NCBI GenBank assembly: GCA_041650855.1
Contig: JBAZKJ010000002.1
Span: forward strand, 550,044-614,043
DNA: 64,000 bases
Origin: Candidatus Margulisiibacteriota bacterium
Lineage (GTDB): Bacteria; Margulisbacteria; WOR-1; O2-12-FULL-45-9; XYB2-FULL-48-7
Reading direction: 5' to 3'
The notes beneath the pieces were generated by a model that was not told where the DNA came from, did not search any database, and was given only the letters and a program-made list of their open reading frames with translations. Below are positions 1,405 through 63,222 of this stretch, one piece after another (the first letter of the stretch is position 1; the number at the start of each line of letters is the position of its first letter). The position numbers were made by a program, and so were the translations under genes.

Positions 1405-3285
1405 TTAGTAGGAGTCCCAATTCAGCAGATCCTTCTTCAAGACCCACTGCATGTAATCCGTTTGATAGAGCATCTCGACCGTTTCGGCGCGGGAGAGGAG
1501 CTTGTTCGGTTCCAAGTTCTTCCCTTGGAGATAATCGAGGATGTTGACCCGGAAAGCGCCTTCCACCAGGCCGGCCGACCAGTGGGTCGCCGGCAGATCG
1601 GGGAAAATGTTGGAGTAGGTCTCTTCCGAGATCCCGGCGAACCGCGCGATCATCGCCAGTCCTTCCGCCCGGGTAATATTCCCGTTCGGCTTAAAGAGGT
1701 TGCCCGGGTAACCCTTGACGATCCCCTGCTCCGCCGCCTGAGCGATGAATCTGGCCGCCCAATGCTTGACGGGAACGTCCTTAAAGCCGGCATTGGCCGC
1801 CGATTCAAGGCTCGCGCCCCGCGACTTCATTAATAATGTAGCCATTTCCGCCCGGGTAATATTCCCTTCGGGCTTGAAGGTGCCGTTGGGATAACCGGTC
1901 AGTACCCCCTGCATGGCCAACAAGGAGATCTTTTCTCTCGTCCAGTAGCCTTCAGGGACGTCGGGGAACGGCTGGAGCCGGAGGACACGGACCTTTTTCT
2001 GGTCGATCAGCTTGCCGGCCGCGTCTTTCCCTTCCACTACGAGGGCATTTTTGCCGATGGTCAGGTCGATCGGCTGGTTAAAGTTCCCTTTCAGGTCGAA
2101 CTTCGCGAGCCGGCCGCTGACCAGCAGGCTCCGGATGCGCGGGTCCTTGATCGCGCCGGTGACCGCCAACTTCTCGTCGTAGGTCATCAGCTTGTCGGAC
2201 TGGACGGTAAGCCGTTCGCCGGTTTCCTCCACCAATTTGACCGGCGAATAGCTGAGCGAGAAGAACGAATTGGAGACGCCGGGCAGCGTGACAAAAGAGT
2301 GGTAACCGTAATCGAAGCGGAAACCGCCGTATTTGACCCCGACGCCGCCCGCCAGGTTGTTGACCGTTTGGATATTGGCGCCGGTCCCGTCCCCTTCGAT
2401 CGCCTGGTCGATCCCGGCACGGATGGCGATCATCGTGATCGGCGACCATTCCACGCCCAAGTGGTAGAGCGGCAAGGTCTTGGCTACCTGGATCTGGTAA
2501 TCCATGTCGGCCAGCAGCATCACTTCCTGGCCCGTTTTATAAAGCGCATTTTGCTGGCCGAGCAATTTTAGCGCCCCGCCGACCTTCACGTTATGAGGGA
2601 ATCCTTCCTTGTGGCCGCTGGCATAGTTCAGCGTACCGCCCAGAGACCCGGGCAGAACGTTCTGGAAGGCGGCGCCGAGCGTCAAAGCTTTATGCGGCGT
2701 TACCAGCAAACCCAGGTCCAGCTGAGTGCCGGTCGCGTTGCCGTTGCTGATCGAGTCGCCCGACAGTCCGACGTTAAAAAGCTTAAGATTGGCGCCGAGC
2801 GAGACCTTGTCCGCCCAGGCTAACTTGTTGTAAAGGCGCTCCAGGCCGGTCGCGTAAGCGAGCGAATAAACGTAATTGCTGTTGCTGATCTGCGGCTGGG
2901 ACATGTCGATCTCGTAGATCGGATCGTTCGGGTCGGAACCTTCGACCATCTTGGTGGCATAAGCGCCGCCGATCGAATAGCCGCCGAGCCCCAGGGCAAA
3001 ATTACCGTACTGGGTCGGATAAACTCCGGCCAGCGACAGGTAGCTGTAATCCTCCAGGAACTTGCCGGATAAAGTGTCGAGCTGCCAATCCCTGGTCCGG
3101 GCTAACCCGGCCGGATTAATGTAGAGCGCCGAAGCGTCATCCGCCAGGCCGACGAAAGTCCGGCCGAGGCCGATCACCCGGGCGTTGAGGCAGCGATCCG
3201 ACGGGTCGACGGCCTGGAATTGGGCCGCCGCCATCCCCGCGACCAGCGCGCCTACCATTATTATGGCTAATAAGGCCTTTCTCAT
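1405..3285 (-). CDS. Outer-membrane FadL/TodX/PorV-like beta-barrel protein with three C-terminal SLH domains (paralog 1)
   Basis: 626 aa with a signal peptide (…AGMAAAQ). The N-terminal hatch-like motif IGLGRTFVGLADDASALYINPAGLA matches the FadL family G-x-GRA…ADDA…NPA signature. The C-terminal about 190 aa contain three canonical SLH repeats (e.g. FKDVPVKHWAARFIAQAAEQGIVKGYPGNLFKPNGNITRAEGLAMIARF). The start ATG overlaps the upstream gene stop (ATGA). Confidence 0.75.
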   Translation of the reverse strand: MRKALLAIIMVGALVAGMAAAQFQAVDPSDRCLNARVIGLGRTFVGLADDASALYINPAGLARTRDWQLDTLSGKFLEDYSYLSLAGVYPTQYGNFALGLGGYSIGGAYATKMVEGSDPNDPIYEIDMSQPQISNSNYVYSLAYATGLERLYNKLAWADKVSLGANLKLFNVGLSGDSISNGNATGTQLDLGLLVTPHKALTLGAAFQNVLPGSLGGTLNYASGHKEGFPHNVKVGGALKLLGQQNALYKTGQEVMLLADMDYQIQVAKTLPLYHLGVEWSPITMIAIRAGIDQAIEGDGTGANIQTVNNLAGGVGVKYGGFRFDYGYHSFVTLPGVSNSFFSLSYSPVKLVEETGERLTVQSDKLMTYDEKLAVTGAIKDPRIRSLLVSGRLAKFDLKGNFNQPIDLTIGKNALVVEGKDAAGKLIDQKKVRVLRLQPFPDVPEGYWTREKISLLAMQGVLTGYPNGTFKPEGNITRAEMATLLMKSRGASLESAANAGFKDVPVKHWAARFIAQAAEQGIVKGYPGNLFKPNGNITRAEGLAMIARFAGISEETYSNIFPDLPATHWSAGLVEGAFRVNILDYLQGKNLEPNKLLSRAETVEMLYQTDYMQWVLKKDLLNWDSY

Positions 3286-4643
3286 CTGGCGATAACGATC
3301 CTCAGCTTTTTCATTTCGTTGTTTTCCGGAATCCTGATCGCGCCGATCAGCATGCCGAGCTGTTCTTTACCCAGGTCATCGCGGGCCGGCACCTTAATGG
3401 TTATTCGCGCTTGTTCGCCGGCCAGGGGGTGAACGGTCAGCGAGCGGACCTTGCCCGGGCCTGAGCCGGCGGCAAAGACCGTTCCTCCCCCGGTCGGGAC
3501 GGTAAAATCGGTCTTTTGGGAGAAGCTCGGCCCGACCATGACGAACTGGAGGCTGGAAGGCAATTTATTCATGATCGCGTTGACCTTGATCTCGTCTTCC
3601 GGCGTATAAAAGCTGGGCCCGGCCAGGATCAGGCCGATATAATCGGCAAAGCTGTTCTTATCGATCAAGTTAATACTCGTGCTGGCGGTCGTACCGTCCG
3701 GATTGTTGACCGTGATCTGGACCGAACTGCCGGTGGCCGCCTTGCCGATGGTCAGCGTGCCGAGGAAGATGACCCCCCGCTGGGTCGTGCCCGGGATCAG
3801 CGCCTCCGGCGAAACGACGGTTTGGGAGGACTTGACGTTCGGGTCGGAAAAGCTGACGGTGGCGTCCTGGCTGACGCCGGTGACGTAGAGGGCGAAATTG
3901 CTGACCGTGATATCGTTATTCGCGTCCCGCGGGAAACTGGGCATCGGCGGAAAAACGCCGACGACCGCGAAAGCGGGATCGGTGTTGGTGACCGCGAAAT
4001 TATAGGTCGCATAACCGGAATCGGGATTGGTCACGACAAAAGGCGCCACCCCGCCGGAAGCAGCCGAGCTGACGGAAAAACCGACCGTGATCCGGCCGGA
4101 AGTGACCACTTCATAAGAAGTAATGGTGATGCTGGAGCTGAGGTTGGAAACTACCGCCGCCGGATCGAACAAGGCCCCTTCGATCGTGGCAAAAACTGTT
4201 TCCCCGGCGTTCGCGCCGGACGGCGACATGCCGCTGATCGCCGGCGGCGTGACCGCCAGGTTGACGACCATCAGGCCGGCGAACACTTCGTAGCTGGAGC
4301 CGTCATTCTTGATAACGCGGATGTTGCGGGCGACGGCCTCGGCCGTAACGTCGCAGGTCAGGTCAAAAGTTATCTGGCTGTCGGAGACGACGGTCAGCGT
4401 CCCCGGGTCGATCGTCAGGCCCGCGGCCGGGGTGAACTCCACGGTCGTGACATGTTGCAGATCGCGGCCGGTGATCGTGATCCGCTCATGGCTCTCACCG
4501 GTCATAATGGACGATGGGGAGACCGAATCGATGATCTGAAACGGTTTAACCGCAGCAAAAGAGGCAGTGGTCAGTAAGACAACCGCGGAAACCAGCATTA
4601 GAAATAAGCCGGTTTTCTTCATATTCGCAGGCAATAATATCAT
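3282..4643 (-). CDS. Secreted Ig-like/IPT-like repeat surface protein (hypothetical)
   Basis: 453-aa ORF. An alternative start at 4622 (MKKTGLFLMLVSAVVLLTTASFAA) gives a cleaner signal peptide and sits about 5 nt after a predicted TTGACT-16/17-TATTAT promoter. Ser/Thr/Val-rich beta-sandwich-like repeats. The stop overlaps the start of the FadL-SLH gene by 4 nt. Confidence 0.6.
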   Translation of the reverse strand: MILLPANMKKTGLFLMLVSAVVLLTTASFAAVKPFQIIDSVSPSSIMTGESHERITITGRDLQHVTTVEFTPAAGLTIDPGTLTVVSDSQITFDLTCDVTAEAVARNIRVIKNDGSSYEVFAGLMVVNLAVTPPAISGMSPSGANAGETVFATIEGALFDPAAVVSNLSSSITITSYEVVTSGRITVGFSVSSAASGGVAPFVVTNPDSGYATYNFAVTNTDPAFAVVGVFPPMPSFPRDANNDITVSNFALYVTGVSQDATVSFSDPNVKSSQTVVSPEALIPGTTQRGVIFLGTLTIGKAATGSSVQITVNNPDGTTASTSINLIDKNSFADYIGLILAGPSFYTPEDEIKVNAIMNKLPSSLQFVMVGPSFSQKTDFTVPTGGGTVFAAGSGPGKVRSLTVHPLAGEQARITIKVPARDDLGKEQLGMLIGAIRIPENNEMKKLRIVIAR

Positions 4644-4689
4644 TGCACACTATAATAGTCAATGTTACAATTGCCGTCGGAGGGAAAAA
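4623..4689. promoter_or_regulatory. Back-to-back divergent promoter region
   Basis: Plus strand: -10 TATAAT at 4651-4656, then GGAGGG SD before ATG 4690. Minus strand: -35 TTGACT (4656-4661) and -10 TATTAT (4634-4639), ending about 10 nt before the ATG at 4622. The two promoters interdigitate. Confidence 0.35.
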
Positions 4690-5895
4690 ATGAAATATTT
4701 TGTTCCGTTAGCTATCCTCGTCTTGCTGGTCGGCTTAAGCGGCTGCACTTCGAGCGCCCCGCTCGAGCGCGCGACCACGACCACCACGCCCGCTACCACC
4801 TCAACAACGGCCGCAACGACCACCACGGCCGCCGGTACGACCACGACGACCGGCACCGGACCAACGACTACCGGCACGCCTACCACTTCCACAACAACGA
4901 CCACTACCGGCCCGGTCGCGACGTACACGGTCAACGGAACGGCCAATATCATGGGGTACGGGATCGCCGGCGTGCTGGTCACGATCGAAGGCGTTGGCAC
5001 CACGACGACCGATCCAGCCGGGAACTTCTCCTTCGGCTCGGTCCCGGCCGGGTTCTGGAGCATGACATTCTGGCAGGCCGGCTGGACATTCGATCCAGCC
5101 TCTGTTTCTTTCGTTCTGACCGGCAATTTGACGAAAAATAGCTCGGGTGAACCGACCGACTGGACGGCGCAAAAAGTCGGCACCGCTCACCTGACCGCCG
5201 CGACTTCCATCGATGCCGGCATGTTTATTGTCGGAAAGAACAGCTCGGTCATTTTACAATCAACCGATGGCGGCACGAATTGGGTAACTGCCTTTACCAA
5301 TAATCCGACCTCCGAACCGTTGATCGCCTGCTTTAGCATGCCGGGAAATACCCTGGGCATAATCAATCAAGATGGTTCAATCTTCCAAAGCACCGATCCG
5401 ACGGTTACCGCCTGGGCTTATTATTTCCGGGTCATCAATACCACCGAAGCCTTGGTCGATTTTAACGCGGCCAGCAACTTAACTTGGGAAGTCGTAACCG
5501 CCGGCGGCAAGATCCTCTGGAGCGGGGACCAAGGCGCAACTTACCTTGATTCCACGGAAGCCGGCAGCTTTGTCCACGGCATTCAGTTGCAGGACCCTTA
5601 TACGATGGTTGCGGCCGGGAACAACGGTTATGTCAAATATTACGACGGCTCGAGCTGGATCAACTTGGGCCCGGGCGGCTCGGAAAACTTTCATAAAGCG
5701 CTATTTGATACAAATGCCGCCTTGCTGGTCTCCAGTCAAGGCGTTATTTACAAAAGCACGGATAACGGCGTGAATTGGGCCCGCAGTTTAACCGGCTTTC
5801 CGGCGACGTTTGAAGGGGTATTTATCCCGGGGGCGCCGTCATTTACCGGCTCGATCGTCTGCGGCAGCAACGGCTGGGTCCTGAAACACAAATAA
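4690..5895 (+). CDS. Lipoprotein with Thr/Pro-rich linker, carboxypeptidase-regulatory-like domain and BNR/Asp-box beta-propeller-like C-terminal region
   Basis: Start MKYFVPLAILVLLVGLSGC (lipobox LSGC) is preceded by GGAGGG SD. The ORF-track start at 4567 lies upstream of the SD and is unlikely. About 50-aa Thr-rich tract (TTTTTPATTSTTAATTTT…). Asp-box-like motifs STDGGTNW and STDNGVNW. Confidence 0.6.
   Translation: MKYFVPLAILVLLVGLSGCTSSAPLERATTTTTPATTSTTAATTTTAAGTTTTTGTGPTTTGTPTTSTTTTTTGPVATYTVNGTANIMGYGIAGVLVTIEGVGTTTTDPAGNFSFGSVPAGFWSMTFWQAGWTFDPASVSFVLTGNLTKNSSGEPTDWTAQKVGTAHLTAATSIDAGMFIVGKNSSVILQSTDGGTNWVTAFTNNPTSEPLIACFSMPGNTLGIINQDGSIFQSTDPTVTAWAYYFRVINTTEALVDFNAASNLTWEVVTAGGKILWSGDQGATYLDSTEAGSFVHGIQLQDPYTMVAAGNNGYVKYYDGSSWINLGPGGSENFHKALFDTNAALLVSSQGVIYKSTDNGVNWARSLTGFPATFEGVFIPGAPSFTGSIVCGSNGWVLKHK
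4768..4923 (+). repeat. Low-complexity Thr/Pro/Gly-rich linker-coding tract (ACC/ACG codon repeats)
   Basis: DNA is runs of accacg/accacc. Protein is TTTTTPATTSTTAATTTTAAGTTTTTGTGPTTTGTPTTSTTTTTTG. Confidence 0.6.
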
Positions 5896-5898
5896 GGA

Positions 5899-7020
5899 CT
5901 AGAACAGCCTCTGCCCCTGCGGCTTGACGCGGACGCCGAACATATAGTTGCGGCTCCCGGCGTTAAGCAGGTCGTCCCCCTGCAGCAGCAGGTCCATGTA
6001 ATCCTGCATTTCGTGTTCGTACCCCAGCCTGACTTTCGGATTGTTCGGCCGCGGGTTGTTGATATCGTATATATCGGCCAGAATGTTACCCTTGGCGTTC
6101 GGATACAGGACCAACCCGCCGCCCAGCTGGCTGTTGATCACGCCGAGCCGGAAACCAAAACGATCGTTCGATTTATTGGTCAGCAAAAAGTCGAGCAGCG
6201 CCGGCGTCCGGCTCGGACCTTCGCCGAAACCGAGCCGGTAATAGGTCTGGTCGCTCTGGATAATATCAACGTCGCCGCGGACCGCGTTCGCGGTGGAGCC
6301 GACATCAACGCCGCCCGAAGCACGCATGTTGACCCGGCCGATGTTGGCGAAAAAGGCGTTGGCGGAAGAGAGGGTCCGCTCGGTCTCGTGGATCGTCCCC
6401 TTGACGTTCGCCTGGAACTTGGGATCGGCGACGATATCCTGGATCCCCTTGTTGGTCGCCCGCAGTTCCTTGGTCAGCTCTTCCAGCTGGATCGCGGTCC
6501 GGTCGGCCACTACCACCGCGTTGACGAACGAATGCTGCAGCGCCGGGTTCTCGATGATCTTGCGGACGGCTTGCAGAATAGCCCTGGTCTCTTCCAGGTT
6601 CTTGGAACCGATATCGACGAAATCGACGATCGCCGAAGTGCGGGTCCCGGGCAAAATCTCCCCTTTAACGTACATCACCTCGGAGGTCCCCGGCTTGATC
6701 TCCAGATATTTCACGCCGACGATCCCGTCGTAAGAGACCCGCAGGACCGAATCGGCCGGGATCTTGATGCTTTTATCCACGACCGAGAAGATCTTAATGT
6801 CGTACGGGCCCGGATCGATCTTCATCACCTTGCCGATCTTGGAGCCGCGGAAGCGGACCTCGGAGCCGATGGTCAACCCTTCGATGTTCTCGAACGAAGC
6901 GATCACTTCGTACCCCTGGCCGATCATGAAGATCTCGGTCTTCCAGGCGACAACGGCGGCCAGCAGACTGAGACCGAGGATGGTGACAAGCCCGACCTTG
7001 GCCGCGGTGGATAAACCCAT
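5899..7020 (-). CDS. mlaD: MCE/MlaD-family protein (long form with C-terminal extension)
   Basis: N-terminal TM anchor MGLSTAAKVGLVTILGLSLLAAVVAW followed by an MCE domain. GGAGGGG SD lies 9 nt upstream of ATG 7020. The ORF-track start at 7095 would overlap mlaF by 71 nt. About 373 aa versus about 180 aa for E. coli MlaD. Confidence 0.7.
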   Translation of the reverse strand: MGLSTAAKVGLVTILGLSLLAAVVAWKTEIFMIGQGYEVIASFENIEGLTIGSEVRFRGSKIGKVMKIDPGPYDIKIFSVVDKSIKIPADSVLRVSYDGIVGVKYLEIKPGTSEVMYVKGEILPGTRTSAIVDFVDIGSKNLEETRAILQAVRKIIENPALQHSFVNAVVVADRTAIQLEELTKELRATNKGIQDIVADPKFQANVKGTIHETERTLSSANAFFANIGRVNMRASGGVDVGSTANAVRGDVDIIQSDQTYYRLGFGEGPSRTPALLDFLLTNKSNDRFGFRLGVINSQLGGGLVLYPNAKGNILADIYDINNPRPNNPKVRLGYEHEMQDYMDLLLQGDDLLNAGSRNYMFGVRVKPQGQRLF

Positions 7021-7024
7021 ATTA

Positions 7025-7750
7025 TTAGACCCCTCCAGTAATAAAACGTTTGACGATCGGCTCGTTCGACCTGGCCGCCTCGGCGGGCGAACCAAGCTCG
7101 ATGAATTTACCTTCGTTCATCATGACGACCCGGTTGGCGACCCGCTGCACCGTTTGCATCACGTGCGTGACCAGCACCGAGGTAACCTTCAGCTCACGGG
7201 CCAATTTTACCATCAAATTCTCGATCGTAACAGAGGTGATGGGGTCCAACCCGGTGGTCGGCTCGTCGTAGAGGATGATCGTCGGGTTAAAAGCGAGCGC
7301 CCGGGCGATGCCGACCCTTTTTTGCATCCCGCCGGACAGCTCTTCCGGCATCAGCTTTTCCGTCCCCTCCATTTCGACCAGCCGCAGTTTTTCCTTGACG
7401 ACCCTGGCGATCTCCCGCTCGGGCAATTTGGCGTGTTCGCGCAGGGCGAACGCCACGTTCTCGTAGACCGAGAGCGAATCGAAGAGCGCCCCGTACTGGA
7501 AGATCATGCCGACCTTTTGCCGCAGGCCGATCAGTCCCTCCTCGTCGAGCTTGGCGATATCCCGGCCGTTGACGGTAACGCTGCCGCCGGTCGGTTCTTC
7601 CAGCCTGATCAGCAGTTTGAGCAGGGTGCTCTTGCCGCAGCCGGACGGGCCGATCACCGCCAGCGCCTGGCCGTCGGGGATCTCCAGGTCGACCCCGTCG
7701 AGCACCTTATGGTCGCAAAAACTTTTACTTAATTTGTTTAGCTTGATCAT
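7025..7750 (-). CDS. mlaF: ABC transporter ATP-binding protein, MlaF-like
   Basis: Walker A GPSGCGKST, ABC signature LSGGMQKR. ATGA overlap with the upstream permease gene. Confidence 0.8.
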   Translation of the reverse strand: MIKLNKLSKSFCDHKVLDGVDLEIPDGQALAVIGPSGCGKSTLLKLLIRLEEPTGGSVTVNGRDIAKLDEEGLIGLRQKVGMIFQYGALFDSLSVYENVAFALREHAKLPEREIARVVKEKLRLVEMEGTEKLMPEELSGGMQKRVGIARALAFNPTIILYDEPTTGLDPITSVTIENLMVKLARELKVTSVLVTHVMQTVQRVANRVVMMNEGKFIELGSPAEAARSNEPIVKRFITGGV

Positions 7751-8526
7751 TTAAAGAACGCCATGGAAAGGAAATAGTTGAGCACGAACAGGCTGATCAG
7801 CGAAGTGACGACCGACGAAGTGGTCGCTTCCCCCACTCCCTTGGCGCCGCCGGCGGCGTTCAACCCCTTGTAACAGGCGACGACGGCGATCACCATGCCG
7901 AAGAAAAAGGTCTTGGTCAGCCCGCCAAAAATATCCCAAAGCGTGAGGAGCGAACGGGCAGTTTCCAGGTACTCCACCGGATTGATGTGGCCGACCAGAA
8001 CAGCGACAAAATAACCGCCGACAAAACCGGTGACGATCGCGCCGACCGTCAGGAGAGGCAGCATCAGGGCGCTGGCGATAAAGCGCGGGATGACGAGGTA
8101 GCGGACCGGGTTGCTGCCGAGCGCCTTGAGCGCGTCGATCTGCTCGGTCACTTGCATGGTGCCGAGCTCGGCGGCAATGGCCGCGGAAACCCGCGCCGCA
8201 ATGACGATGCCGACCAGCGCCGGTCCCAGCTCGCGCGCCATGGCGATCGCCATGACCCCGCCGACGAACTTGCCGGCGCCGAAGCGGACGAACTCGGTGG
8301 CGATCTGCATGGCAAAGACCATGCCGACAAAACCGGAAGCGACCAGCGCCAGCGGGACCGACTCGTAGCCGATCTTGACCATTTGCTCCAGCGTCAGCTT
8401 AAGTCGGGTTTTCCCGGCCAGGATCCCCCGGATCGTCTCTTGGGCAAGCATCACGACCCGGCCCAGCCCCTCAAAAAGGAGGATCGTTTTATCCCCGACG
8501 TTTTCAGCGACTCTTTTGTAGACCAT
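7747..8526 (-). CDS. mlaE: ABC transporter permease, MlaE-like
   Basis: 259-aa polytopic membrane protein with typical MlaE/YrbE family sequence. Operon position is upstream of mlaF and mlaD. Confidence 0.8.
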   Translation of the reverse strand: MVYKRVAENVGDKTILLFEGLGRVVMLAQETIRGILAGKTRLKLTLEQMVKIGYESVPLALVASGFVGMVFAMQIATEFVRFGAGKFVGGVMAIAMARELGPALVGIVIAARVSAAIAAELGTMQVTEQIDALKALGSNPVRYLVIPRFIASALMLPLLTVGAIVTGFVGGYFVAVLVGHINPVEYLETARSLLTLWDIFGGLTKTFFFGMVIAVVACYKGLNAAGGAKGVGEATTSSVVTSLISLFVLNYFLSMAFFK

Positions 8527-9301
8527 GGTGGATGTTAGCTATGATATCAGAAGCGGTAAGCGATTGCTCCCCGCAGAGCCTGGCGGCCTGGTCGCCGGCT
8601 AAACCGTGCCAATAAACGCCGGTCACGGCTGCGTCCCAGGCGGAAAAGCCCTGCCCGGCCAGACTGGCGATCATCCCGGTCAGGACATCGCCGGCGCCGG
8701 CGGTCGCCATCCCCGGATTACCGTTTTTATTGATCGCGAACTTCCCGGCCGGCTCGGCGATAACGGTCCGATTACCCTTGAGGACAACGACCGCGCCGAA
8801 CTTCACCGCCGCCTGCAGGGCGATGCCTTGGCGGTTCGCTTGAACGGCCTCGACCGTCAGACCAAGCAATTTGGCCATCTCGCCCGGATGCGGCGTAATA
8901 ACAGCCTGGCTGGCGAACGGCTTGAGCAAATCCGGGCTCTTGGTTAACGCTGGCAAAGCGGTCGCGTCAATTATTAATTTAGAATTTAAAGTCAATAATT
9001 GATGAATTAATTTATTAATATCTTGCTGTGGATCGATGCCGGGGCCAATCGCGACCGAATCCGGCTGGACCTTAGCCAACTCATTAAGGGAAACAACAAT
9101 GACTTCGGGCGTAATGGTGTTGGCAAAGTTGACAAGGTCGTCGGGTACGGCCCAGTAAACAAGCCCGGAACCGGTCCGCAAAGCGGCGCGCGCCGCTAGA
9201 ACGCCGGCGCCGAGCATCCCGCGCGAACCGGCAACGACCAGGACCTTGCCGTAATCGCCTTTATGGCTATCCGGTTTTCGTTTGGGGAGACGCTTTACCA
9301 T
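8504..9301 (-). CDS. nnrD: ADP-dependent NAD(P)H-hydrate dehydratase (YjeF C-terminal domain only)
   Basis: HKGDYGKVLVVAGSRGMLGAGVLAARAALRTGSGLV N-terminal signature of the YjeF_C carbohydrate-kinase fold. 265 aa, stand-alone. Confidence 0.75.
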   Translation of the reverse strand: MVKRLPKRKPDSHKGDYGKVLVVAGSRGMLGAGVLAARAALRTGSGLVYWAVPDDLVNFANTITPEVIVVSLNELAKVQPDSVAIGPGIDPQQDINKLIHQLLTLNSKLIIDATALPALTKSPDLLKPFASQAVITPHPGEMAKLLGLTVEAVQANRQGIALQAAVKFGAVVVLKGNRTVIAEPAGKFAINKNGNPGMATAGAGDVLTGMIASLAGQGFSAWDAAVTGVYWHGLAGDQAARLCGEQSLTASDIIANIHHGLQKSR

Positions 9302-11139
9302 GTGTTAAGGGTGCGGATCTGGGCGGCCATTTGCGAGGTCCTGGCCAGGACCTCGGCCACCTCGGCGCGGGTCATCGCGCGGTTCGGTTCAAAATTCTTA
9401 CCGCTGAGGAAGGTCAGCCAGCCCGCCTCTTTGGCCGCGGCGATCTCGTTATAAGCCCAGGAGCGGCCGTTAATGTCGCTGAACGGCAGGACGGAAAGCC
9501 GCGGTTTGGTCAAACGGTCGAACCGGGCCAGGATCGAGAGCCCTTCGGCCCTGGTCACTTTACTGTTCGGCCGGAAAGTGCTGTCCGGATAGCCTTTGAC
9601 CAGGTTCTCTTTGACCGCTTCGATAATGTGTTGCGCTGCCCAGTGGGTCGCCGGTACGTCCATGAACCCTTGCTGCCAGCCCGGCTTGATCTCGATCCCC
9701 TTGATCCGCATCAGCAGGGCGCAAAGCTCAGCCCGGGTAACGCCCGCTTCGGGCAAAAAAGTGCCGTTCGGGTATCCGGCAATGATGCCGAGCGTCGCCA
9801 GGTTCTCGATCGGCGCCTGCGCCCAGTAATCGGGTGTCACGTCGGTAAAACTCTTGAGGCTTAACAACCGGACCTGGTCGGAACCGAGCGGTGCCCATTT
9901 ATCGCTATACGCCGTGATCTCGATCGTGTTTTTGCCGGGTTTAAGGGGAAGCGCAACGTCGACCTGCTGCTGTTTGAGCGGCGCTTCGAAGCCGCTGATG
10001 GTCAGATGGGCGACCTCGCTCTTTAAGACTTTCCCCTGGAAATCGACCCGCTGGCCGCGGATGACCGTTTTATCGGCCGGCTGCAGGGCGAACAGCGCCC
10101 CTTTGGGCGTCCGGTCCTTCTTGCCGACGCCGTAAGAGATGGAAAAATAATGGGTATCATTGTCGCCCGTTTGGCTGTATTGGTGGAACGCGTAATCGAA
10201 ACGGAAATCGTTGAAGTAAAGGCCCAGGCCGAAGGTCAGGTTATTGGAGGCCTCCAGCGCGCCGGAGGTGCCGGTCCCCACCGTTTCCTGGTCGATGCCG
10301 GCGCGCAGGTCGAGCAGGTCGATCGGCGACCACTCGATCCCGGTGTGATAAAGCGCCGGGATATTCGGCCTGGTCGGCGTGAAATCTCCGTCAAAATTTA
10401 AGCGGACCTCGTGTTTGCCGCGGACCCAGATCCCCTGTTCGCCGAGCAGGTTGACGTTGGCCCCCAGTTTGACGACATGAGGCAAACTCTCTTCCAGTCC
10501 GCTCTTCCAGGTGATCTTGCCCCCCATACCGGCCGGCAGGATGTTCTGCAGGACGAGGCCGAACTTGGTAAATTGCAGCGGCCGGTAGTTGATCCCCAGG
10601 TCAAGATCGTTGCCGGCGGCGCTCCCGTTCGTGATCCCCTGCCCGGTCATGTCGACGCCGAAGAACTTGAGCGTGCCGCCGACCGGCAGTTCGTAAAAGG
10701 TCGCGCCCCAGGAAAGGAGGAACACCCGGTTGTTGTATTCGTAATTCGAACCGGCGCCGCCGGTCGGGATGATCCGGATGCCGTCCACCGCCTCGATCGT
10801 CGCGGCGACCGCGGTAAAGCCGACATTACTGCCGACGTAACCGAAGCCGAACGTGCCGTATTTGGTCGGCACGGCTGTCCCCAGGTTAAGATAATTATAT
10901 TCATTAAGGAATTTGCCCGACATGCTGGTCGCCTGCGGCCGGTTGATCTGGGCAAGCGCGGCCGGATTGGTAAAGATCCCTTCCAGGTCGTCGGCCATGC
11001 CGATGTAGCTTTTGCCCATGCCGAGGATCCGGGCGCCGACCCCGATCCGGGTCGGGTCGTTGGCGACTTTGGTCAAGCCGAACGCCAGCGAAGCGACCGT
11101 GACCAGCAGGAGTAAAGAAACCGGCAGTTTTTTAATCAT
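9295..11139 (-). CDS. Outer-membrane FadL/TodX/PorV-like beta-barrel protein with three C-terminal SLH domains (paralog 2)
   Basis: 614 aa with a signal peptide. Hatch motif ILGMGKSYIGMADDLEGIFTNPAALA. Three C-terminal SLH repeats (FTDVTPDYWAQAPI…, FMDVPATHWAAQHI…TRAEGLSILARF, FSDINGRSWAYNEI…TRAEVAEVLART). The start ATG overlaps the stop of the giant upstream gene by 8 nt. Confidence 0.75.
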   Translation of the reverse strand: MIKKLPVSLLLLVTVASLAFGLTKVANDPTRIGVGARILGMGKSYIGMADDLEGIFTNPAALAQINRPQATSMSGKFLNEYNYLNLGTAVPTKYGTFGFGYVGSNVGFTAVAATIEAVDGIRIIPTGGAGSNYEYNNRVFLLSWGATFYELPVGGTLKFFGVDMTGQGITNGSAAGNDLDLGINYRPLQFTKFGLVLQNILPAGMGGKITWKSGLEESLPHVVKLGANVNLLGEQGIWVRGKHEVRLNFDGDFTPTRPNIPALYHTGIEWSPIDLLDLRAGIDQETVGTGTSGALEASNNLTFGLGLYFNDFRFDYAFHQYSQTGDNDTHYFSISYGVGKKDRTPKGALFALQPADKTVIRGQRVDFQGKVLKSEVAHLTISGFEAPLKQQQVDVALPLKPGKNTIEITAYSDKWAPLGSDQVRLLSLKSFTDVTPDYWAQAPIENLATLGIIAGYPNGTFLPEAGVTRAELCALLMRIKGIEIKPGWQQGFMDVPATHWAAQHIIEAVKENLVKGYPDSTFRPNSKVTRAEGLSILARFDRLTKPRLSVLPFSDINGRSWAYNEIAAAKEAGWLTFLSGKNFEPNRAMTRAEVAEVLARTSQMAAQIRTLNTW

Positions 11140-14100
11140 ATATAACGATATGCCCCTTACCGATCACCTTGCCGCCGGCCATGATCCGGAAAACGTAGAT
11201 CCCGTTCCCCAGCGCCAGGCCGGAAGTATCGGAAAGACCGTTGAACGCGATGGCGTTATAGCCGGCCATCCCGCCGTTGGTCCCGGTCGCGTACCGCCGG
11301 TTCCAGACCGGTTCGCCGGCCGGGCCAAAGATGACGAGATTGACGTCGGCGTCCTGGTTCAGGTTATACGCGACCGTCGTGGTCACGTCGCGGGCGATCG
11401 AGTAAGTTGTCGGGTAGACCGAAACCGCGCCGACCAGGGCCGTAGAACTGCCCGCGGCGACCACTTTCAGGCCGGTTACGAGCTTGTTCAGCGAACCGCC
11501 CTCTATGTCGTTCGCCTCCACGCTGATGCTGTGGGCCATGACCGTTTCGTCCTCCAGTTCCCCCGCCGGCTGGAAGATCAGAGTGTAATCCCGGTCGGAG
11601 TTGGCAACGATATAAGGATTGACCAGCGCGCCGTCGAGGTGCATCTTCAGCGAACTCGCTTCGAGCGAAACGTCGTCGGTAATATTGGCTTTGAACGTCG
11701 GCCGTTTCATAACGTAATCGCCGTTCCGGAGATCGGCGTTATTGGCCTTGAGCGAAGCGGCCAGCTTGCCGGCGACGGTGGTGAAGGTCGAACTGAACGC
11801 CGTCAAGCTGTTGCCGATCAGGTCGACGGCGCCCGGGCCGATCGTCACGGTATAATTGCCGCTCCGCGCCAGGATCGCCGCCGGCGTAAAGGTCATCGTC
11901 TGGCCGTCGCTGCTCCAGCTGAAAGCGCCCGCCGCCGTGGCGACCGCCGTCAGGGTAAAAGCGTTCTGGGCCGCCTCCCGGCTCATCTCTTTGGAGAAGG
12001 TGACGATCACTTCGGCGGTAGTCGGGACATTGGTCGCACTACCGGCCGGGACGATCGCCGTCACCGTCGGCCGTACAACGTCGATCGTAAAATCAGCGGC
12101 GCTGATCGCCGTCGCTTCCCGGGTGACCTGGTCGACCGCGCTGACCCTGATCCGGCCGCTGGTCGTGGCCAGGGACGGCACGGTCCACTCGTAGGTCCCG
12201 GTATTGGTCAGGCCGGATGCTACCGTCGACCAGCTGCCCCCGCCGTCACTGGAGAATTGGATAGTGATCGGCGCGGCTGCCAGGCCGACCGTGTCGGACG
12301 CGCTCCACCTGATCGGATAGGTCGCCCCCACCCGCTCGCCGCCGTTGGGCGCGATCACCTCAGCGGTCGGTGGACGGGCGTCAAGCAGGAAGGCGCCGCT
12401 TTCGCCGGTGCCAAGCTGGCCGTAACCATCGAGACCGGTAACTTTAATCCTCATGTTCGCCGATTCAAAGGTCGGAACGGTATTGATATAATACGGTTCA
12501 TTCGTCGGTACGCTGGTATCGATCAGGATGTAATCCGTCCCGCCGTTAAGCGAGTAATAGATCGAGGCGCTGTTCGCCTGGACGCCGTTCGGCCCTCCCA
12601 TCGCAAAGACGATGGGGGTGGCGGGAATGTTTTCGGTCTTGTATTTTCCACCGGCAACGGGATTGGTTACCGTAACGGTTGGCCCCTCCTGGGTCGGCGT
12701 AGTCGCACTAGCCACGCCGGACTCGGAGCTGGCGTCGATCTTCCAGGCCCGGACAAAACGGTTATAAGTACTGCTGCCGGTCATCCCCGCTTCGACCGTC
12801 GAGGCGACGCCGTGCGGCGCTTCGGCCACCACCGCGCCGGTCTCGGCGCTGACCACCTGGTAAACGGATTCCCAGGTCGTGTTGCCGGTCCAGCTCCAGC
12901 GGACCGTGTTGGCCGATTCGGCGGTGCCGACCAGGCCGGTCGGCGCTGCGGGCGTGACCGTTCCCCAACCGATAAAATCGTCGTAAACTATGTAATCGGA
13001 GACTTTTTGCCCCTGCCCGACCGGATTAAAATAACGGCCGCTCGCCCGGTTATCTTCCGGATCGTACGGCCCGGTCGGTTCGCCCCAATCGGTCCGGTTA
13101 AAATAATGCATTGTGCCGCTGTTGTTATTATAGATCGCGTATTTAGTCTCCCGGTCGCCATAGATCGACGCGTTCGCTTCAATGGTGCCGTCCGTCATAA
13201 CGACAGGGCCGGCACCGGTGATCAGCAGGCCGTAACCGCCGTTGTTAACTATCGTATTATTGGCGCCCGAAATGGGACCGCTGGTCGTATGCTGGATCGC
13301 GTCGCCGGTGCAATTGGCGATCTCATTGCCGCTGATGTAGGTCGTATAAAAAGGCTGAGAGACCATGATGCCGTTGCTGTTGCCGAGCGCGCCGCCGGCC
13401 GCGGTCACCCCGAACCGGTTATTATTGATCTGCGTATTATCGATGTTGTAACCGACGACCAGGCCGAAACCGGTATTGCCGGAGATCAGGTTGTTCAAGA
13501 CCTGATTGCCGCTATTGGACGCGCCACCCGCGTTATAGCAGGACATCAAGATGCCGCCCACGGAATTCGGCAGCGCGCCTGATCCGTTCTTGTTCAGGCC
13601 GATATAATTTCCCTGGATCGTGTTAGAGTTCAGCGCCGTGGTATAGCTGTAGGAATCGTAGCCCAGCACGACGCCGTAGCCGCCGTTGCCGGAGATGATG
13701 TTCCGCTCGCCTTCGGCCGTGCCGCCGATCGTATTGAAATTGGCGGTCGTCGGAAAGATCATCACACCGCCGTAGTTACCGACACCATAGGAATTATTGG
13801 GGATCATCCCGTAACCGGAAGCGTTGGTCCCGATGTGGTTCCCTTTGACCGAAAGATAGTCACCGTGCAGCTCCACGCCGGAATTAAAATTGCCGGAGAT
13901 CACGTTCCCCTCGCCCGTCGCGCCGCCGCCGATATCGTTGTACATTCCGCCCAGATAAACACCGTACATGTTCGGCAAAGCGCTGTTGGAGGTCTTGTCC
14001 ACGCCGACATAATTGCCCAGGATCCGGTTATACGCGGTGCCGGACGCGGGATAACTCGGGCTGCTAACGTTTATGCCGTAATTCTGGCCGGCGATCACGT

Positions 14101-16003
14101 TGCGCGCTTCCAGCGTGGCGCCGCCGATCAGTTGGTAGCTCGAATCGGCAAGATAGACACCGTAGTCCGTATAATATGAACCGGAATACCCGGGCAGGAT
14201 GCTGGTCCCGTCGGCGTCGGTCCCGATCAGGTTCCCTTGGACCGTGTTGCCGATAAGCGAATAATTGAGATAAACATTGATATTGTTACAGCTGATCAAG
14301 TTCCCGGCGCCCTCCTGCGTTCCGCCGATCATACAGCCGTAGGAATTATAGGCGTATATGCCGATCATATTTTGCAGGCGGCCGGTCCCGGCCTGGTTCG
14401 TGCCGATCCGGTTCCCCCGGATCTCCGCGCTCGACGTGTTCATGACCTGGATCGCGTAATAGGCATTGCCGGAGATCACGTTCCCCTCGCCGCTGCCGCT
14501 CCCGCCGATCCGGTTGTAAGGCGCTTCCAGCTTGATGCCGTTATAATTACTAAGATAATCCGTGCCGGTCTTGTCTGTGCCGATATAATTACCGATCAGC
14601 CTGTTGTTCTGTGACGTGCCGGAAGCGCATATGCCGAAATAATTTGAGCCGGAGCCGTTGCCGGAGATGATGTTCCGCTCGCCTTCGGTCGTGCCGCCGA
14701 TCGTGTTGTAACTGGAATTGTTGACGTAAACCCCATGATAATTGTTGGGGATGGGGCTGTCTCCCAGACAATTGGTGCCGATATAGTTCCCCTTGACCTC
14801 GTTGCTGGTTCCGCCGTATAAATAAAGGCCGTACCGGGTGTTGCCGGAGATCAGGTTACCCTCGCCGGCATTTCCGCCGCCGATCTGGTTGTAAGGCCCT
14901 TCCACCCTGATCCCGTTATAGTTGGCCAGAGCGTATGTCCCGTTCTTGGTGGTGCCGATGTAATTGCCAAAGACGCGGTTGTGTTGAGCGGTTCCCATGA
15001 TCCAGAGGCCGTAATAATTCGAGGTGCCGTTACCCGATATGACGTTCCGCTCCCCTTCGGCGCTCCCGCCGATCAGGTTCAGGTTCGCATTAGTAATATA
15101 TACCCCGGCGTAGTAATTGGCGATAGCCGTGATCCCGTCGGCGTCGGTCCCGATGTAGTTCCCCTTGACCTCGTTGCTGAGCGCGGTCGTGCCCATGATC
15201 TGGACGCCGACGTTATTGCCGGAGATCAGGTTCCGTTCGGCTTCCGTCGCCCCGCCGATAATGTTGCTGAAGCAATTCACGCCGTCGCCGTAGAGGTTGA
15301 CAGCCGCACCGACAGCGCTTGCTACGGCGCGGCTGCCGGTCCGGTTAACGCCGAGATAATTCCCCTTGATCAGGTTGCCGATACTCCCGGTACATTGAAT
15401 CCCGCAGCTGTTATTGCCGGAGATCAGGTTCCTGGCTTCCGTGGCGTAGCCGCCGACCAGGTTGTAGTTGCCGTGGAGCCAGATGCCGGCGATCGCGGTC
15501 GTGGTGTCAACCTCGCCGGTCGCGTCGGTGCCGAAATAACAGCCGCGGATCGTGTTGTAATCGGTGCCGCAGTCGATCGTGTAGCCGCCTTTGTAGTAAC
15601 TAAAGACCATCCCTTCGATCGTATTACCGTTAGAATAGAGCGCGATCCCGGGGCTGCCTTCGCTGACCTCCGAGGAAATAACGATCTCCGGCCCGTAAGG
15701 ATTGGTATTGCCCTGGTTAATGGTCTGGGTGGAGCCGTTAATATAGATGTTAGGGTTGCTGACCACCAACGAGGTCATTAATTTAATGATCCAGGCGTGA
15801 CCGCCGGGGATCGCTTCGTAACTAAGGTCGGTGGCCGGGATATTGAACTCGATGATCCGGCCGGAAGTGGAAGAGGTTATCCCCTCGCGCAGGGACCCGG
15901 CCCCGGAATCGTTACAATTGGTTACGGTATAAGTATCGGCCGGCGAACTTGAGGTAAAAAACAGGACAAGCGCCAACGCACCCAGGAGCAATCTCGCTCT
16001 CAT
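11132..16003 (-). CDS. Giant secreted right-handed parallel beta-helix repeat surface protein with Ig-like domains and a FlgD-Ig / T9SS-CTD-like C-terminal domain
   Basis: 1623 aa with a signal peptide (MRARLLLGALALVLFFTSSSPA). About 15 tandem ~63-aa repeats of GNYIGT…IGG..EGERN(I/L)ISGN. Ig-like middle region. The last about 90 aa (…VWNRRYATGTNGGMAGYNAIAFNGLSDTSGLALGNGIYVFRIMAGGKVIGKGHIVIYD) match the FlgD-Ig / por-secretion-tail-like pattern. Confidence 0.8.
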   Translation of the reverse strand: MRARLLLGALALVLFFTSSSPADTYTVTNCNDSGAGSLREGITSSTSGRIIEFNIPATDLSYEAIPGGHAWIIKLMTSLVVSNPNIYINGSTQTINQGNTNPYGPEIVISSEVSEGSPGIALYSNGNTIEGMVFSYYKGGYTIDCGTDYNTIRGCYFGTDATGEVDTTTAIAGIWLHGNYNLVGGYATEARNLISGNNSCGIQCTGSIGNLIKGNYLGVNRTGSRAVASAVGAAVNLYGDGVNCFSNIIGGATEAERNLISGNNVGVQIMGTTALSNEVKGNYIGTDADGITAIANYYAGVYITNANLNLIGGSAEGERNVISGNGTSNYYGLWIMGTAQHNRVFGNYIGTTKNGTYALANYNGIRVEGPYNQIGGGNAGEGNLISGNTRYGLYLYGGTSNEVKGNYIGTNCLGDSPIPNNYHGVYVNNSSYNTIGGTTEGERNIISGNGSGSNYFGICASGTSQNNRLIGNYIGTDKTGTDYLSNYNGIKLEAPYNRIGGSGSGEGNVISGNAYYAIQVMNTSSAEIRGNRIGTNQAGTGRLQNMIGIYAYNSYGCMIGGTQEGAGNLISCNNINVYLNYSLIGNTVQGNLIGTDADGTSILPGYSGSYYTDYGVYLADSSYQLIGGATLEARNVIAGQNYGINVSSPSYPASGTAYNRILGNYVGVDKTSNSALPNMYGVYLGGMYNDIGGGATGEGNVISGNFNSGVELHGDYLSVKGNHIGTNASGYGMIPNNSYGVGNYGGVMIFPTTANFNTIGGTAEGERNIISGNGGYGVVLGYDSYSYTTALNSNTIQGNYIGLNKNGSGALPNSVGGILMSCYNAGGASNSGNQVLNNLISGNTGFGLVVGYNIDNTQINNNRFGVTAAGGALGNSNGIMVSQPFYTTYISGNEIANCTGDAIQHTTSGPISGANNTIVNNGGYGLLITGAGPVVMTDGTIEANASIYGDRETKYAIYNNNSGTMHYFNRTDWGEPTGPYDPEDNRASGRYFNPVGQGQKVSDYIVYDDFIGWGTVTPAAPTGLVGTAESANTVRWSWTGNTTWESVYQVVSAETGAVVAEAPHGVASTVEAGMTGSSTYNRFVRAWKIDASSESGVASATTPTQEGPTVTVTNPVAGGKYKTENIPATPIVFAMGGPNGVQANSASIYYSLNGGTDYILIDTSVPTNEPYYINTVPTFESANMRIKVTGLDGYGQLGTGESGAFLLDARPPTAEVIAPNGGERVGATYPIRWSASDTVGLAAAPITIQFSSDGGGSWSTVASGLTNTGTYEWTVPSLATTSGRIRVSAVDQVTREATAISAADFTIDVVRPTVTAIVPAGSATNVPTTAEVIVTFSKEMSREAAQNAFTLTAVATAAGAFSWSSDGQTMTFTPAAILARSGNYTVTIGPGAVDLIGNSLTAFSSTFTTVAGKLAASLKANNADLRNGDYVMKRPTFKANITDDVSLEASSLKMHLDGALVNPYIVANSDRDYTLIFQPAGELEDETVMAHSISVEANDIEGGSLNKLVTGLKVVAAGSSTALVGAVSVYPTTYSIARDVTTTVAYNLNQDADVNLVIFGPAGEPVWNRRYATGTNGGMAGYNAIAFNGLSDTSGLALGNGIYVFRIMAGGKVIGKGHIVIYD
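13200..15700 (-). repeat. Tandem intragenic DNA repeats (about 190 bp unit, about 380 bp super-unit) encoding beta-helix coils
   Basis: Near-identical blocks recur, e.g. gccggagatcacgttcccctcgcc…ccgccgatc at about 13895, 14465 and 14840, and gccggagatgatgttccgctcgccttcgg at about 13690, 14660 and 15030. Confidence 0.6.
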
Positions 16004-16044
16004 GATGAGAAATTATAACAAAAATAGCAACAACTATGCAACTT
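16004..16044 (-). promoter_or_regulatory. Sigma70-like promoter with extended -10 (TGtTATAAT) directly abutting the start codon of the giant gene
   Basis: Minus strand: -35 TTGCAT (plus coords 16036-16041), 18 nt spacer, TG + TATAAT (16012-16020). Only 8 nt separate the -10 from ATG at 16003, which suggests a leaderless transcript. AT-rich island in otherwise GC-rich DNA. Confidence 0.35.
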
Positions 16045-54765: not shown

Positions 54766-54772
54766 GGGTTTA

Positions 54773-55429
54773 TTATAACATGAAGAGAAAATAAATTCCT
54801 GCCAGGATAAAGACGAAACCCGCCCCTTTTTGCAGGAGCGCGGAAATCTTTTGGAAGCGGGCCGAACCGAGCAGCGCCGCGGCCGCGCCGGCCGAGACCC
54901 CGACCGCGAAGATCGTCGCCATGTACGCCAGCGCGTAAACGAATAAAAGGGAAACGCCGTAGGCCAAATTCCTGGTCGCCGCGACGTACGCCAGGACCAG
55001 CGCCAGGACCGGCGTCGCGCAGGGGGAAGAAGCAAGCCCAAAAAGCAGCCCGAGAAAGAGCGCGCCGAATAAGCCCTTTTGCTTGATCCGGCTGACCCCG
55101 GTGGTCGGTAAATTGAGCTGGACCAGTCCCAGCAGGTTCAGGCCGACCAGGACGGCGGCCGCGGCCAGCAGATAGCGCCAATAGCCGCCGACGTCGCCGA
55201 GCAAGCTGCCGGTCAGCGCGGCGAGCGCGCCAAGTATGGTAAAAGTGATCGCCAAGCCGAGCGAAAAGAGGAGCGCATAAAGCGCCGACCGGCGGATATC
55301 GCCCGCGGCGTAACCGCCGACGTAACTGATGATCAGGGGAAAGATGATCAGCGTGCAGGGACTGGCCGAAGCGACCAGTCCGGCCAGGAAGACCGCCAGG
55401 TAAGCGAACAAAGGGTTAGAAAAGTCCAA
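54773..55429 (-). CDS. ccdA: Cytochrome c-type biogenesis / thiol-disulfide transporter CcdA (DsbD family)
   Basis: Two conserved Cys in TM regions (ASASPCTLIIFP and LASSPCATP). 218 aa, 6-TM. Confidence 0.8.
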   Translation of the reverse strand: MDFSNPLFAYLAVFLAGLVASASPCTLIIFPLIISYVGGYAAGDIRRSALYALLFSLGLAITFTILGALAALTGSLLGDVGGYWRYLLAAAAVLVGLNLLGLVQLNLPTTGVSRIKQKGLFGALFLGLLFGLASSPCATPVLALVLAYVAATRNLAYGVSLLFVYALAYMATIFAVGVSAGAAAALLGSARFQKISALLQKGAGFVFILAGIYFLFML

Positions 55430-62596: not shown

Positions 62597-62619
62597 TTAT
62601 CTCTCCTTCTTGAGCTTTA

Positions 62620-62982: not shown

Positions 62983-62994
62983 GTATTTCCCCCT

Positions 62995-63201: not shown

Positions 63202-63222
63202 AATAATACTACTATTTTTCGA

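Follow-up and report, generated by a model that had tools for sequence, protein, structure and literature searches.

Gene Organization of the Locus

Two adjacent genes on the minus strand of a 64,000-nucleotide (nt) stretch of DNA from Candidatus Margulisiibacteriota bacterium (GCA_041650855.1, JBAZKJ010000002.1, positions 550,044-614,043 of the forward strand; this whole stretch is referred to as the window) are the subject of this analysis. The first gene (11132..16003), delineated by its open reading frame (ORF), translation and Pfam matches, encodes a secreted beta-helix/immunoglobulin (Ig)-like protein of 1623 amino acids (aa) with a C-terminal sorting-type domain, hereafter the cargo. 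The second gene (9295..11139), delineated by its ORF, Pfam and NCBIfam matches and an AlphaFold model, encodes a barrel-anchor protein of 614 aa, which contains a PorV/PorQ-like barrel, an Ig-like spacer and three SLH repeats. The genes overlap by 8 nt, with the string ATGATTAA common to the stop of the cargo and the start of the barrel; the two ORFs, their coordinates and this overlap had been put forward in an original prediction made from the sequence alone and were confirmed on the minus strand. Both ORFs are considered real and not due to chance because approximately 100 full-length homologs were found (E values down to 0) and because the two nearest relatives, with barrels 96% and 76% identical, have the same kind of pair with its 8-nt overlap. 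The reading that we favor, with moderate confidence, is that the pair consists of a cognate cargo and its docking barrel, onto which a wall anchor has been fused. The interpretation in the original prediction, a cargo docking and anchoring system of the outer membrane, is partly supported by the results described below.

The Barrel-Anchor Protein

The barrel-anchor protein starts with a signal peptide (approximately aa 1-21, 11077..11139; read from the sequence, with a presumed cleavage site), followed by a 14-strand barrel of the PorV/PorQ family with an N-terminal plug that contains an NPA motif (aa 22-340, 10120..11076; NCBIfam, model and Foldseek), a Glucodextran_B-like Ig-like spacer (aa 345-428, 9856..10107), which forms a beta-sandwich in the model from approximately aa 350, and three SLH repeats (aa 430-614, 9298..9852; Pfam SLH), all on the minus strand. 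Pfam recognizes only the SLH repeats in this protein, and no match was obtained with the Pfam FadL or PorV models. The NCBIfam model PorV_fam (NF033709) matches over profile positions 8-324 of 326 with an E value of 3.3e-18, at 66.3 bits, which is below the curated 90-bit cut-off. Among 36 relatives of the barrel, PorV_fam matches all 36 (best E 7.8e-27), T9SS_PorQ matches 31 and T9SS_OM_PorV matches 2, and the relatives P0031 and P0175 are named "PorV/PorQ family protein" by NCBI. The AlphaFold model, which used an alignment of 36 relatives, has a predicted local distance difference test score (pLDDT) of 86.7; its DSSP string reads as 14 strands, short turns alternate with longer loops, and the last barrel strand, HYFSISYG, resembles a beta-signal. 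The best Foldseek matches of the barrel are the PorV chains 8gl6_F and 6h3i_F (E 2.5e-11, TM-score 0.60-0.62, target-normalized), both from SprA translocon complexes and the former bound to the C-terminal domain (CTD) of RemA, and FadL and TodX come next. The N-terminal region, therefore, models as a 14-strand barrel of the PorV/FadL type, and the predicted PorV fold stood, while the predicted FadL-family assignment found no counterpart in Pfam.

The barrel shares with FadL and TodX the 14 strands, the N-terminal plug, strong fold matches and the conserved NPA motif, of which N58, P59 and A60 are invariant or nearly so among relatives. These features bear on an alternative that we regard as unlikely, in which the barrel is a general tether between the outer membrane and the wall (OmpM-like), possibly a FadL-type hydrophobic channel, and the cargo genes are merely co-transcribed, with no contact between tail and barrel. 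The NPA plug motif of the FadL superfamily and the FadL and TodX fold matches agree with such a role, as does the fact that an SLH domain plus a barrel is the standard outer-membrane tether in this region of the tree, including Margulisbacteria and Saganbacteria (10.1101/2021.05.31.446380). However, the barrel is nearer to PorV and PorQ, which are known tail binders, than to FadL: PorV ranks higher in Foldseek. FadL proteins have neither an SLH extension nor a cargo pairing. A survey of OmpM described it as an SLH domain plus a beta-barrel porin with homologues in Margulisbacteria and Saganbacteria, and PorV is unmentioned there (10.1101/2021.05.31.446380). As in OmpM, Slp and SomA of diderm Terrabacteria, an outer-membrane beta-barrel and a periplasmic SLH module, expected to bind a modified wall, are combined here in one polypeptide. 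The order is reversed, however, since OmpM has one N-terminal SLH domain, a coiled coil and a C-terminal porin, whereas the present protein has an N-terminal barrel, an Ig spacer and three SLH repeats. In addition, the barrel is of the PorV/FadL type instead of a general porin, and is linked to tail-bearing cargo genes, so that the protein agrees with OmpM only in the loose sense of "SLH plus beta-barrel".

Regarding the wall-binding part, the canonical SLH triad of the original prediction was recovered by Pfam PF00395 in three stretches (131 bits, E 1e-38), and the TRAE motif is intact in all three repeats (VTRAEL, VTRAEG and MTRAEV). In the model, the SLH part folds like the SLH domains of Sap and SpaA, which were solved with pyruvylated cell-wall polymer units (TM-score approximately 0.8, target-normalized). 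From the intact motifs and these fold matches, the ligand is probably a pyruvylated secondary cell-wall polymer; CsaB, which is responsible for pyruvylation of this ligand, was not found in the 64-kb window. The spacer matches Pfam Glucodextran_B with an E value of 0.13 in the window barrel and 5e-8 in its paralog in the window. Barrels assembled by the beta-barrel assembly machinery have an even number of strands and both termini in the periplasm, and for this reason the Ig spacer and the SLH repeats, which follow the last barrel strand in the model, would lie in the periplasm and not outside the cell, in agreement with the original prediction. In one relative (L004:8773-11653; P0003/P0004, 954-983 aa), the region of Ig spacer plus SLH is doubled, giving six SLH repeats.

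The Cargo Protein and Its C-Terminal Tail

The cargo was predicted to be a secreted beta-helix/Ig protein, and this is borne out by a signal peptide and by matches to Pfam NosD, Beta_helix and Big_5. The signal peptide (MRARLLLGALALVLFFTSSSPA, approximately aa 1-22, 15938..16003; read from the sequence, with a presumed cleavage site) precedes a right-handed parallel beta-helix of approximately 940 aa with repeated GNYIGT-type coils (approximately aa 23-960, 13124..15937), in which Pfam finds NosD in three stretches and Beta_helix in two (E 2e-11). Fn3/Ig-like stalk domains occupy approximately aa 990-1410 (11774..13036) and include a Big_5 match at aa 1308-1409 (E 5.6e-16); the boundaries of helix and stalk are approximate. 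The protein ends in a penultimate Ig-like domain (approximately aa 1413-1518, 11450..11767) and the CTD, a domain resembling FlgD-Ig and the type A sorting domain of the system for type IX secretion (T9SS), assigned from family-level hidden Markov model (HMM) matches (aa 1519-1623, 11135..11449); all of these features lie on the minus strand. The last 211 aa, which comprise the final two domains, are weakly similar to the two domains at the C-terminus of PorU (NCBIfam T9SS_sortase, positions 886-1076 of 1095, E 5e-4). A low-confidence model of these 211 aa (pLDDT 58), from a five-sequence alignment, is all-beta and weakly suggests a PorU-like fold, its top Foldseek match being PorU (6za2, E 5e-6).

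As a single sequence, the window tail (last 105-109 aa) stays below the curated cut-offs, with 16.9 bits against 23 for TIGR04183 (Por_Secre_tail; E 0.004) and 17.6 bits against the gathering cut-off of 27 for FlgD_ig (PF13860; E 0.004). The C-terminal ends of proteins whose genes lie upstream of barrels were used to build a tail HMM, which was then iterated. Among 47 members of the tail family, FlgD_ig matches 24 (best E 3.8e-9), TIGR04183, the T9SS type A sorting domain, matches 18 at E<=0.01 (best 4.3e-8), and PF18962 matches 4. The PorU tail region is matched by 14 of the 47 and the PorZ tail by 7, and CHU_C (type B) by only 3, weakly (best E 0.003). When PDB sequences were searched with the tail profile, FlgD matched with an E value of 1e-6, followed by the tail of PorU (0.048) and by PorZ (0.17). 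At the family level, FlgD_ig is thus the closest family of the tail as judged by sequence. The predicted identity as a FlgD-Ig or por-secretion tail holds for the family in this way, and not for the window tail taken singly. A word-indexed homolog search with the tail (the last 211 aa, or the 47-sequence profile) gave 2-3 short matches only.

The tail domain lies at the extreme C-terminus in 57 of 57 genes, ending within a few residues of the stop, and complete cargos carry signal peptides; type A sorting domains have the same position, being approximately 70-100 aa long and located at the extreme C-terminus of a Sec-exported protein. Among cargo homologs, the conserved part is the C-terminal 430 aa. 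The N-terminal parts are mutually unrelated (beta-helix, BNR propeller or other), the tail is common to all, and the genes sit upstream or downstream of related barrels. Although divergent, the tails of one cargo family with BNR-propeller/Ig architecture (c1) are homologs of those in the main family (hhalign probability 98.3%, E 1e-14). FlhA is encoded upstream of some pairs, and a link between the FlgD-like tail and flagella was considered; it was rejected because the tail is borne by signal-peptide-containing beta-helix, propeller and Ig proteins, not by hook-cap proteins.

Distribution and Conserved Pairing

The full-length homologs of the barrel protein, approximately 100 in a word-indexed search, belong, where named, almost all to Candidatus Margulisiibacteriota, Saganbacteria or WOR-1, and 79 loci, at several copies per genome, came from these lineages in a scan of species-representative genomes. 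When the barrel alone was the query of an exhaustive search, 3109 representatives matched at E<=1e-3, of which 252 reached E<=1e-30; the best 150 matches are mostly 500-650 aa long, the length of the fused architecture. A 357-aa stand-alone "PorV/PorQ family protein" is also present in the phylum.

The pairing was surveyed in the 79 loci plus the window (1.23 Mb, 939 genes from crude longest-ORF calls), the loci being centered on barrels. Tail-bearing genes number 57, and 42 of them stand immediately beside a co-oriented barrel gene, compared with 80 of 794 other genes (odds ratio 25, Fisher p 1.6e-26). From the side of the barrels, 41 of 88 adjoin a tail-bearing gene (36 of 72 where both neighbors are visible), and truncated beta-helix genes downstream of the L020 and L071 barrels would raise this count. 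The adjacency that the original prediction asked for is thus conserved among the tail-bearing genes, most of which adjoin a barrel, and holds for about half of the barrels. The cargo is mostly upstream of the barrel, with gaps mostly of -20 to +45 nt, and is sometimes downstream. In the relative with 96% barrel identity (L083), the order is AcpS, a 1621-aa cargo and the barrel, with an 8-nt overlap as in the window; in that with 76% identity (L082), two tandem tail-bearing cargos precede the barrel, again with an 8-nt overlap. The stoichiometry is variable (loci L027, L037, L042, L052 and L054; L082:1-10008): in some loci one cargo is followed by two tandem barrels, some of these arrangements lying immediately downstream of flhA, a flagellar export gene, and other loci have two tandem cargos before one barrel.

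Three genomic contexts recur. The first, to which the window belongs, is a string of ArgRS, aminotransferase, AcpS, NnrD and MlaEFD, in which the cargo-barrel unit takes varying positions between genomes and in which the barrel occurs without cargo in at least nine genomes. In the window, an overlap joins the barrel gene to nnrD, and mlaE, mlaF and mlaD come next (5899-9301, minus strand, packed with overlaps), and the nnrD/mlaE/mlaF/mlaD string also adjoins related barrels in at least 13 loci. The MlaD of the window is long (398 aa). A role of the barrel as outer-membrane partner of the adjacent Mla system is conceivable for a barrel of the FadL/PorV type, but the arrangement looks like general synteny, and this reading was rejected because the string also contains the unrelated ArgRS, aminotransferase, AcpS and NnrD. 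In the second context, a c1 cargo is followed by the barrel, and a recurring cassette is found nearby; this cassette, near the second barrel subfamily, encodes two secreted proteins (a CarboxypepD_reg protein of approximately 437 aa and a protein of approximately 400 aa) and a tail-bearing protein of approximately 380 aa (loci L022, L026, L030, L038, L041, L046, L050, L052, L060 and L062). The cassette is often near Gly-rich-repeat or Peptidase_S74 (tail-fibre chaperone) proteins. In the third context, the barrel is adjacent to LepA/HemN/DnaK and has no cargo.

These data return to the possibility of a general tether. The family is multi-copy, many lone members lie in housekeeping strings (ArgRS/aminotransferase/AcpS/NnrD/MlaEFD and LepA/HemN/DnaK), and the window barrel itself is tightly packed with NnrD and MlaE/F/D downstream, all of which would suit a tether that happens to be co-transcribed with its neighbors. 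A tether would nevertheless leave unexplained the 25-fold enrichment of one C-terminal domain among the immediate co-oriented neighbors, and the sharing of a common tail by cargos with unrelated N-terminal parts. It would also leave unexplained that barrel subfamilies have tail subtypes of their own. In a motif-by-subfamily table, all 12 pairs of barrel subfamily 3 have tails of the NGIY...G.G..V(Y/F) type and all 6 pairs of subfamily 2 have GQTYF tails, and in Mantel tests barrel distances correlate with tail distances (r 0.32, p 5e-4), whereas no such correlation is seen for SLH distances (r -0.03). An adjusted Rand index from automatic clustering of tails and barrels carried no information, as most tails fell into one cluster under average linkage.

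Comparison with Known Systems

In the T9SS attachment complex of Porphyromonas gingivalis, the tails of PorU and PorZ are uncleaved and stay bound to PorV and PorQ, respectively (PMC10202324). The present pair resembles PorQ-PorZ and PorV-PorU in the fold and models of the PorV-family barrel and in the likeness of the last two cargo domains to the PorU C-terminus. In contrast, PorQ-PorZ and PorV-PorU belong to Bacteroidota, act downstream of the SprA/Sov translocon and have barrels with no wall-binding domain, whereas the pair here comes from Margulisiibacteriota, carries an Ig spacer and three SLH repeats on the barrel, and is encoded by adjacent, often overlapping genes. Because the window proteins score below the curated cut-offs of PorV_fam, TIGR04183 and FlgD_ig, they are filed as homologs of PorV/PorQ and of the sorting tails, not as named members.

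Type B cargo genes of Bacteroidota cluster with cognate PorP/SprF barrels, which have been proposed to anchor the uncleaved cargo, and the PG1035-PorP complex of P. gingivalis includes the peptidoglycan-binding PorE (PMC9143113, PMC10202324, PMC12618676). The analogy with such pairs drawn in the original prediction fits the literature (PMC10202324, PMC12618676), as SprB-SprF and PG1035-PorP-PorE follow the same logic of surface protein, barrel and wall and show the same clustering as gene pairs. The parts are different: the barrel gave no match to the NCBIfam PorP/SprF models at E<=0.1, the tail is type A/FlgD-like and not type B, and the wall-binding module is an SLH triad fused to the barrel, in contrast to the OmpA_C-like domain of a separate lipoprotein in P. 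gingivalis. One polypeptide here does what P. gingivalis does with PorP and PorE, and it represents a second build of an SLH-anchored outer-membrane protein, with a domain order opposite to that of OmpM.

The component families are already known, and scattered members bear public labels such as "PorV/PorQ family", "S-layer homology domain-containing", "FlgD Ig-like domain-containing" and "right-handed parallel beta-helix repeat-containing". In the literature searched, there was no paper linking PorV with SLH, or T9SS with Margulisbacteria or Saganbacteria, and the Margulisbacteria genome paper contained nothing relevant to PorV plus SLH or to T9SS.

Proposed Mechanism and Route of Export

If the two proteins are a cognate cargo and docking barrel, the beta-helix protein would be exported to the periplasm by Sec and would then arrive at the cell surface. 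It would be held there non-covalently, its C-terminal FlgD-Ig/T9SS type A-like beta-sandwich binding the PorV/PorQ-family barrel encoded directly downstream, and the periplasmic extension of this barrel (the Ig-like spacer and three SLH repeats) would grip the pyruvylated secondary cell-wall polymer on the peptidoglycan. As a result, surface protein, outer membrane and wall would be mechanically coupled. The binding of tail to barrel is proposed by analogy with PorU-PorV, PorZ-PorQ, SprB-SprF and PG1035-PorP, and the cargo is presumably surface-exposed. Where a barrel has no cargo beside it, it may serve tail-bearing proteins whose genes lie elsewhere; in Flavobacterium, orphan type B cargos share a shuttle.

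Several observations weigh against this reading. A tail-bearing neighbor is missing for about half of the barrels; relatives at the ArgRS/aminotransferase/Mla string without cargo include those of L002, L008, L009, L010, L014, L018, L019, L047 and L057, and the entire LepA-adjacent barrel subfamily (LepA/HemN/DnaK) lacks a cargo. In the second pair of genes in the window, described below, the 453-aa upstream protein was considered as a tail carrier, and no tail was detectable in it by HMM or hhalign, alone or with its 438-aa ortholog. The window tail and the window barrel both score below curated cut-offs, the model of the tail is poor (pLDDT 58), and the tail sequence lies closer to the Ig domain of FlgD (E 1e-6) than to tails from Bacteroidota, for example the PorU tail (E 0.048). 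The subfamily-specific pairing and the Mantel correlation can also stem from co-inheritance of neighboring genes. Furthermore, no outer-membrane translocon for a folded 1623-aa cargo was identified, and T9SS has been reported only from Bacteroidota and the Fibrobacteres-Chlorobi-Bacteroidetes (FCB) group (PMC10202324, PMC11205867).

The route of export divides the remaining explanations. The pair could be part of a complete T9SS encoded elsewhere in the genome, its barrels being PorV/PorQ/PorP-like shuttles that have gained an SLH anchor; we regard this as possible but doubtful. It is compatible with the docking model and differs from it in the export route only. The family-level matches of the tails to TIGR04183, PorU and PorZ agree with it, as do the matches of all tested barrels to PorV_fam and of most to PorQ, and the NCBI name "PorV/PorQ family protein" of some relatives. 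In Bacteroidota, moreover, the distribution of CTD proteins closely tracks that of the T9SS core genes (PMC10202324). On the other hand, the 64-kb window and the ten barrel-neighbor proteins scanned yielded no T9SS core gene, and none lies beside the stand-alone Margulisbacteria PorV/PorQ gene (P0175), which is in a housekeeping context with no tail-bearing neighbor. The literature searched gave no link between T9SS and this phylum, and reviews confine the system to Bacteroidota and the FCB group (PMC10202324, PMC11205867).

Both the lack of core genes in the window and among the ten neighbor proteins and the lack of a T9SS report from this phylum would suit a quite different explanation, in which the barrel itself is a dedicated outer-membrane translocator of the neighboring cargo, like Slam/type XI or two-partner secretion, and the pair is truly self-contained. 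In the Slam/type XI system, a 14-strand barrel exports an adjacent cargo that is recognized via a C-terminal beta domain, and secretion that is powered by extracellular folding, as in type V systems, typically has beta-helix passengers. The tight gene pairs, sometimes with two cargos per barrel, and the beta-helix of the cargo fit such a process. We nevertheless consider this explanation improbable. The plugged 14-strand fold of the FadL type speaks against it, Pfam and NCBIfam reported no Slam (DUF560), TpsB/POTRA or autotransporter match, and many of the cargos are propeller or Ig proteins that would need to cross unfolded. PorV and PorQ, the homologs of the barrel, furthermore act as shuttles or anchors of cargo and not as its translocators (PMC10202324).

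A more far-reaching reading can be put forward tentatively, namely that SprA and PorKLMN are absent from Margulisbacteria and Saganbacteria and that the tail and the PorV/PorQ-like barrel form a stand-alone module for surface display and wall coupling. If so, the module would predate type IX secretion and have been recruited later in the FCB lineage, or else it would be a minimal offshoot that uses another export route or exports its own cargo; in addition, tail recognition of the PorV type would be separable from the T9SS translocon and motor.

In Margulisbacteria, a phylum sister to Cyanobacteria, an Ig-like tail at the C-terminus and a barrel of the PorV/PorQ type, the two hallmarks of type IX sorting, occur together as conserved gene pairs. 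In reviews, T9SS and the tails of its cargos are confined to Bacteroidota and the FCB group (PMC10202324, PMC11205867). Two questions become testable with these pairs: whether tail-barrel recognition takes place without a T9SS translocon, and how giant adhesin-like proteins are coupled to the wall in diderm Terrabacteria. Approximately 250-650 representative proteins whose only label is "S-layer homology domain-containing" could receive a new annotation, and the proteins encoded beside them could be recognized as probable surface proteins.

The Second Gene Pair and Other Features of the Window

The window contains a second pair on the minus strand, whose genes overlap by 4 nt. The upstream gene (3282..4643; identified by translation) encodes a 453-aa secreted Ig-repeat protein, and the downstream gene (1405..3285; identified by homology and Pfam) encodes a 626-aa paralogous PorV/PorQ-like barrel with an Ig spacer and SLH repeats. 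Along its full length, the second barrel shares 35% identity with the first (E 5e-127), and it matches Pfam SLH and Glucodextran_B; its closest relatives, approximately 50% identical, come after c1-family cargos. The 453-aa protein has no Pfam match and is 28-30% identical to the Ig region in the middle part of c1 cargos. The pair is kept in L082, the relative with 76% barrel identity. Divergent from it, at 4567-5895 on the plus strand, lies an ORF for a probable lipoprotein (LSGC lipobox) with a Thr-rich linker, a CarboxypepD_reg-like domain and a BNR/Ycf48-like propeller, the true start of which is probably the MKYF... codon approximately 41 codons into the ORF. This propeller is approximately 30% identical to the N-terminal propeller of c1 cargos, and a 406-aa counterpart is found at the matching position of L082. 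The propeller lipoprotein and the 453-aa Ig protein look like the two parts of a c1-type cargo that has been split here.

A promoter-like element (TTGCAT, an 18-nt spacer and TGtTATAAT; 16012..16041, minus strand) was read from the sequence by its resemblance to the consensus only. It ends 8 nt 5' of the cargo ATG, inside a 41-nt AT-rich gap after acpS, and was not listed by a consensus scan because its -35 hexamer has 3 of 6 consensus bases. If this element is a promoter, the cargo-barrel transcript would be nearly leaderless.

The remainder of the 64-kb window is housekeeping in character, including ArgRS, an aminotransferase, the dcw cluster, GH57 glycogen genes, and Trp/His and glycolysis genes. 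Within the GH57 glycogen gene cluster, a protein with DUF4912 and Glucodextran_B (46606-47574, minus strand) contains the same Ig-like type as the barrel spacer. A ThyX-type thymidylate synthase ORF (53358-55181, minus strand) is unusually long, with 607 aa and two Thy1 stretches, and may represent a duplicated or fused ThyX or an over-called start. At the end of the window (62001-64000), the GC content drops to 0.495, compared with approximately 0.59 elsewhere in the window.

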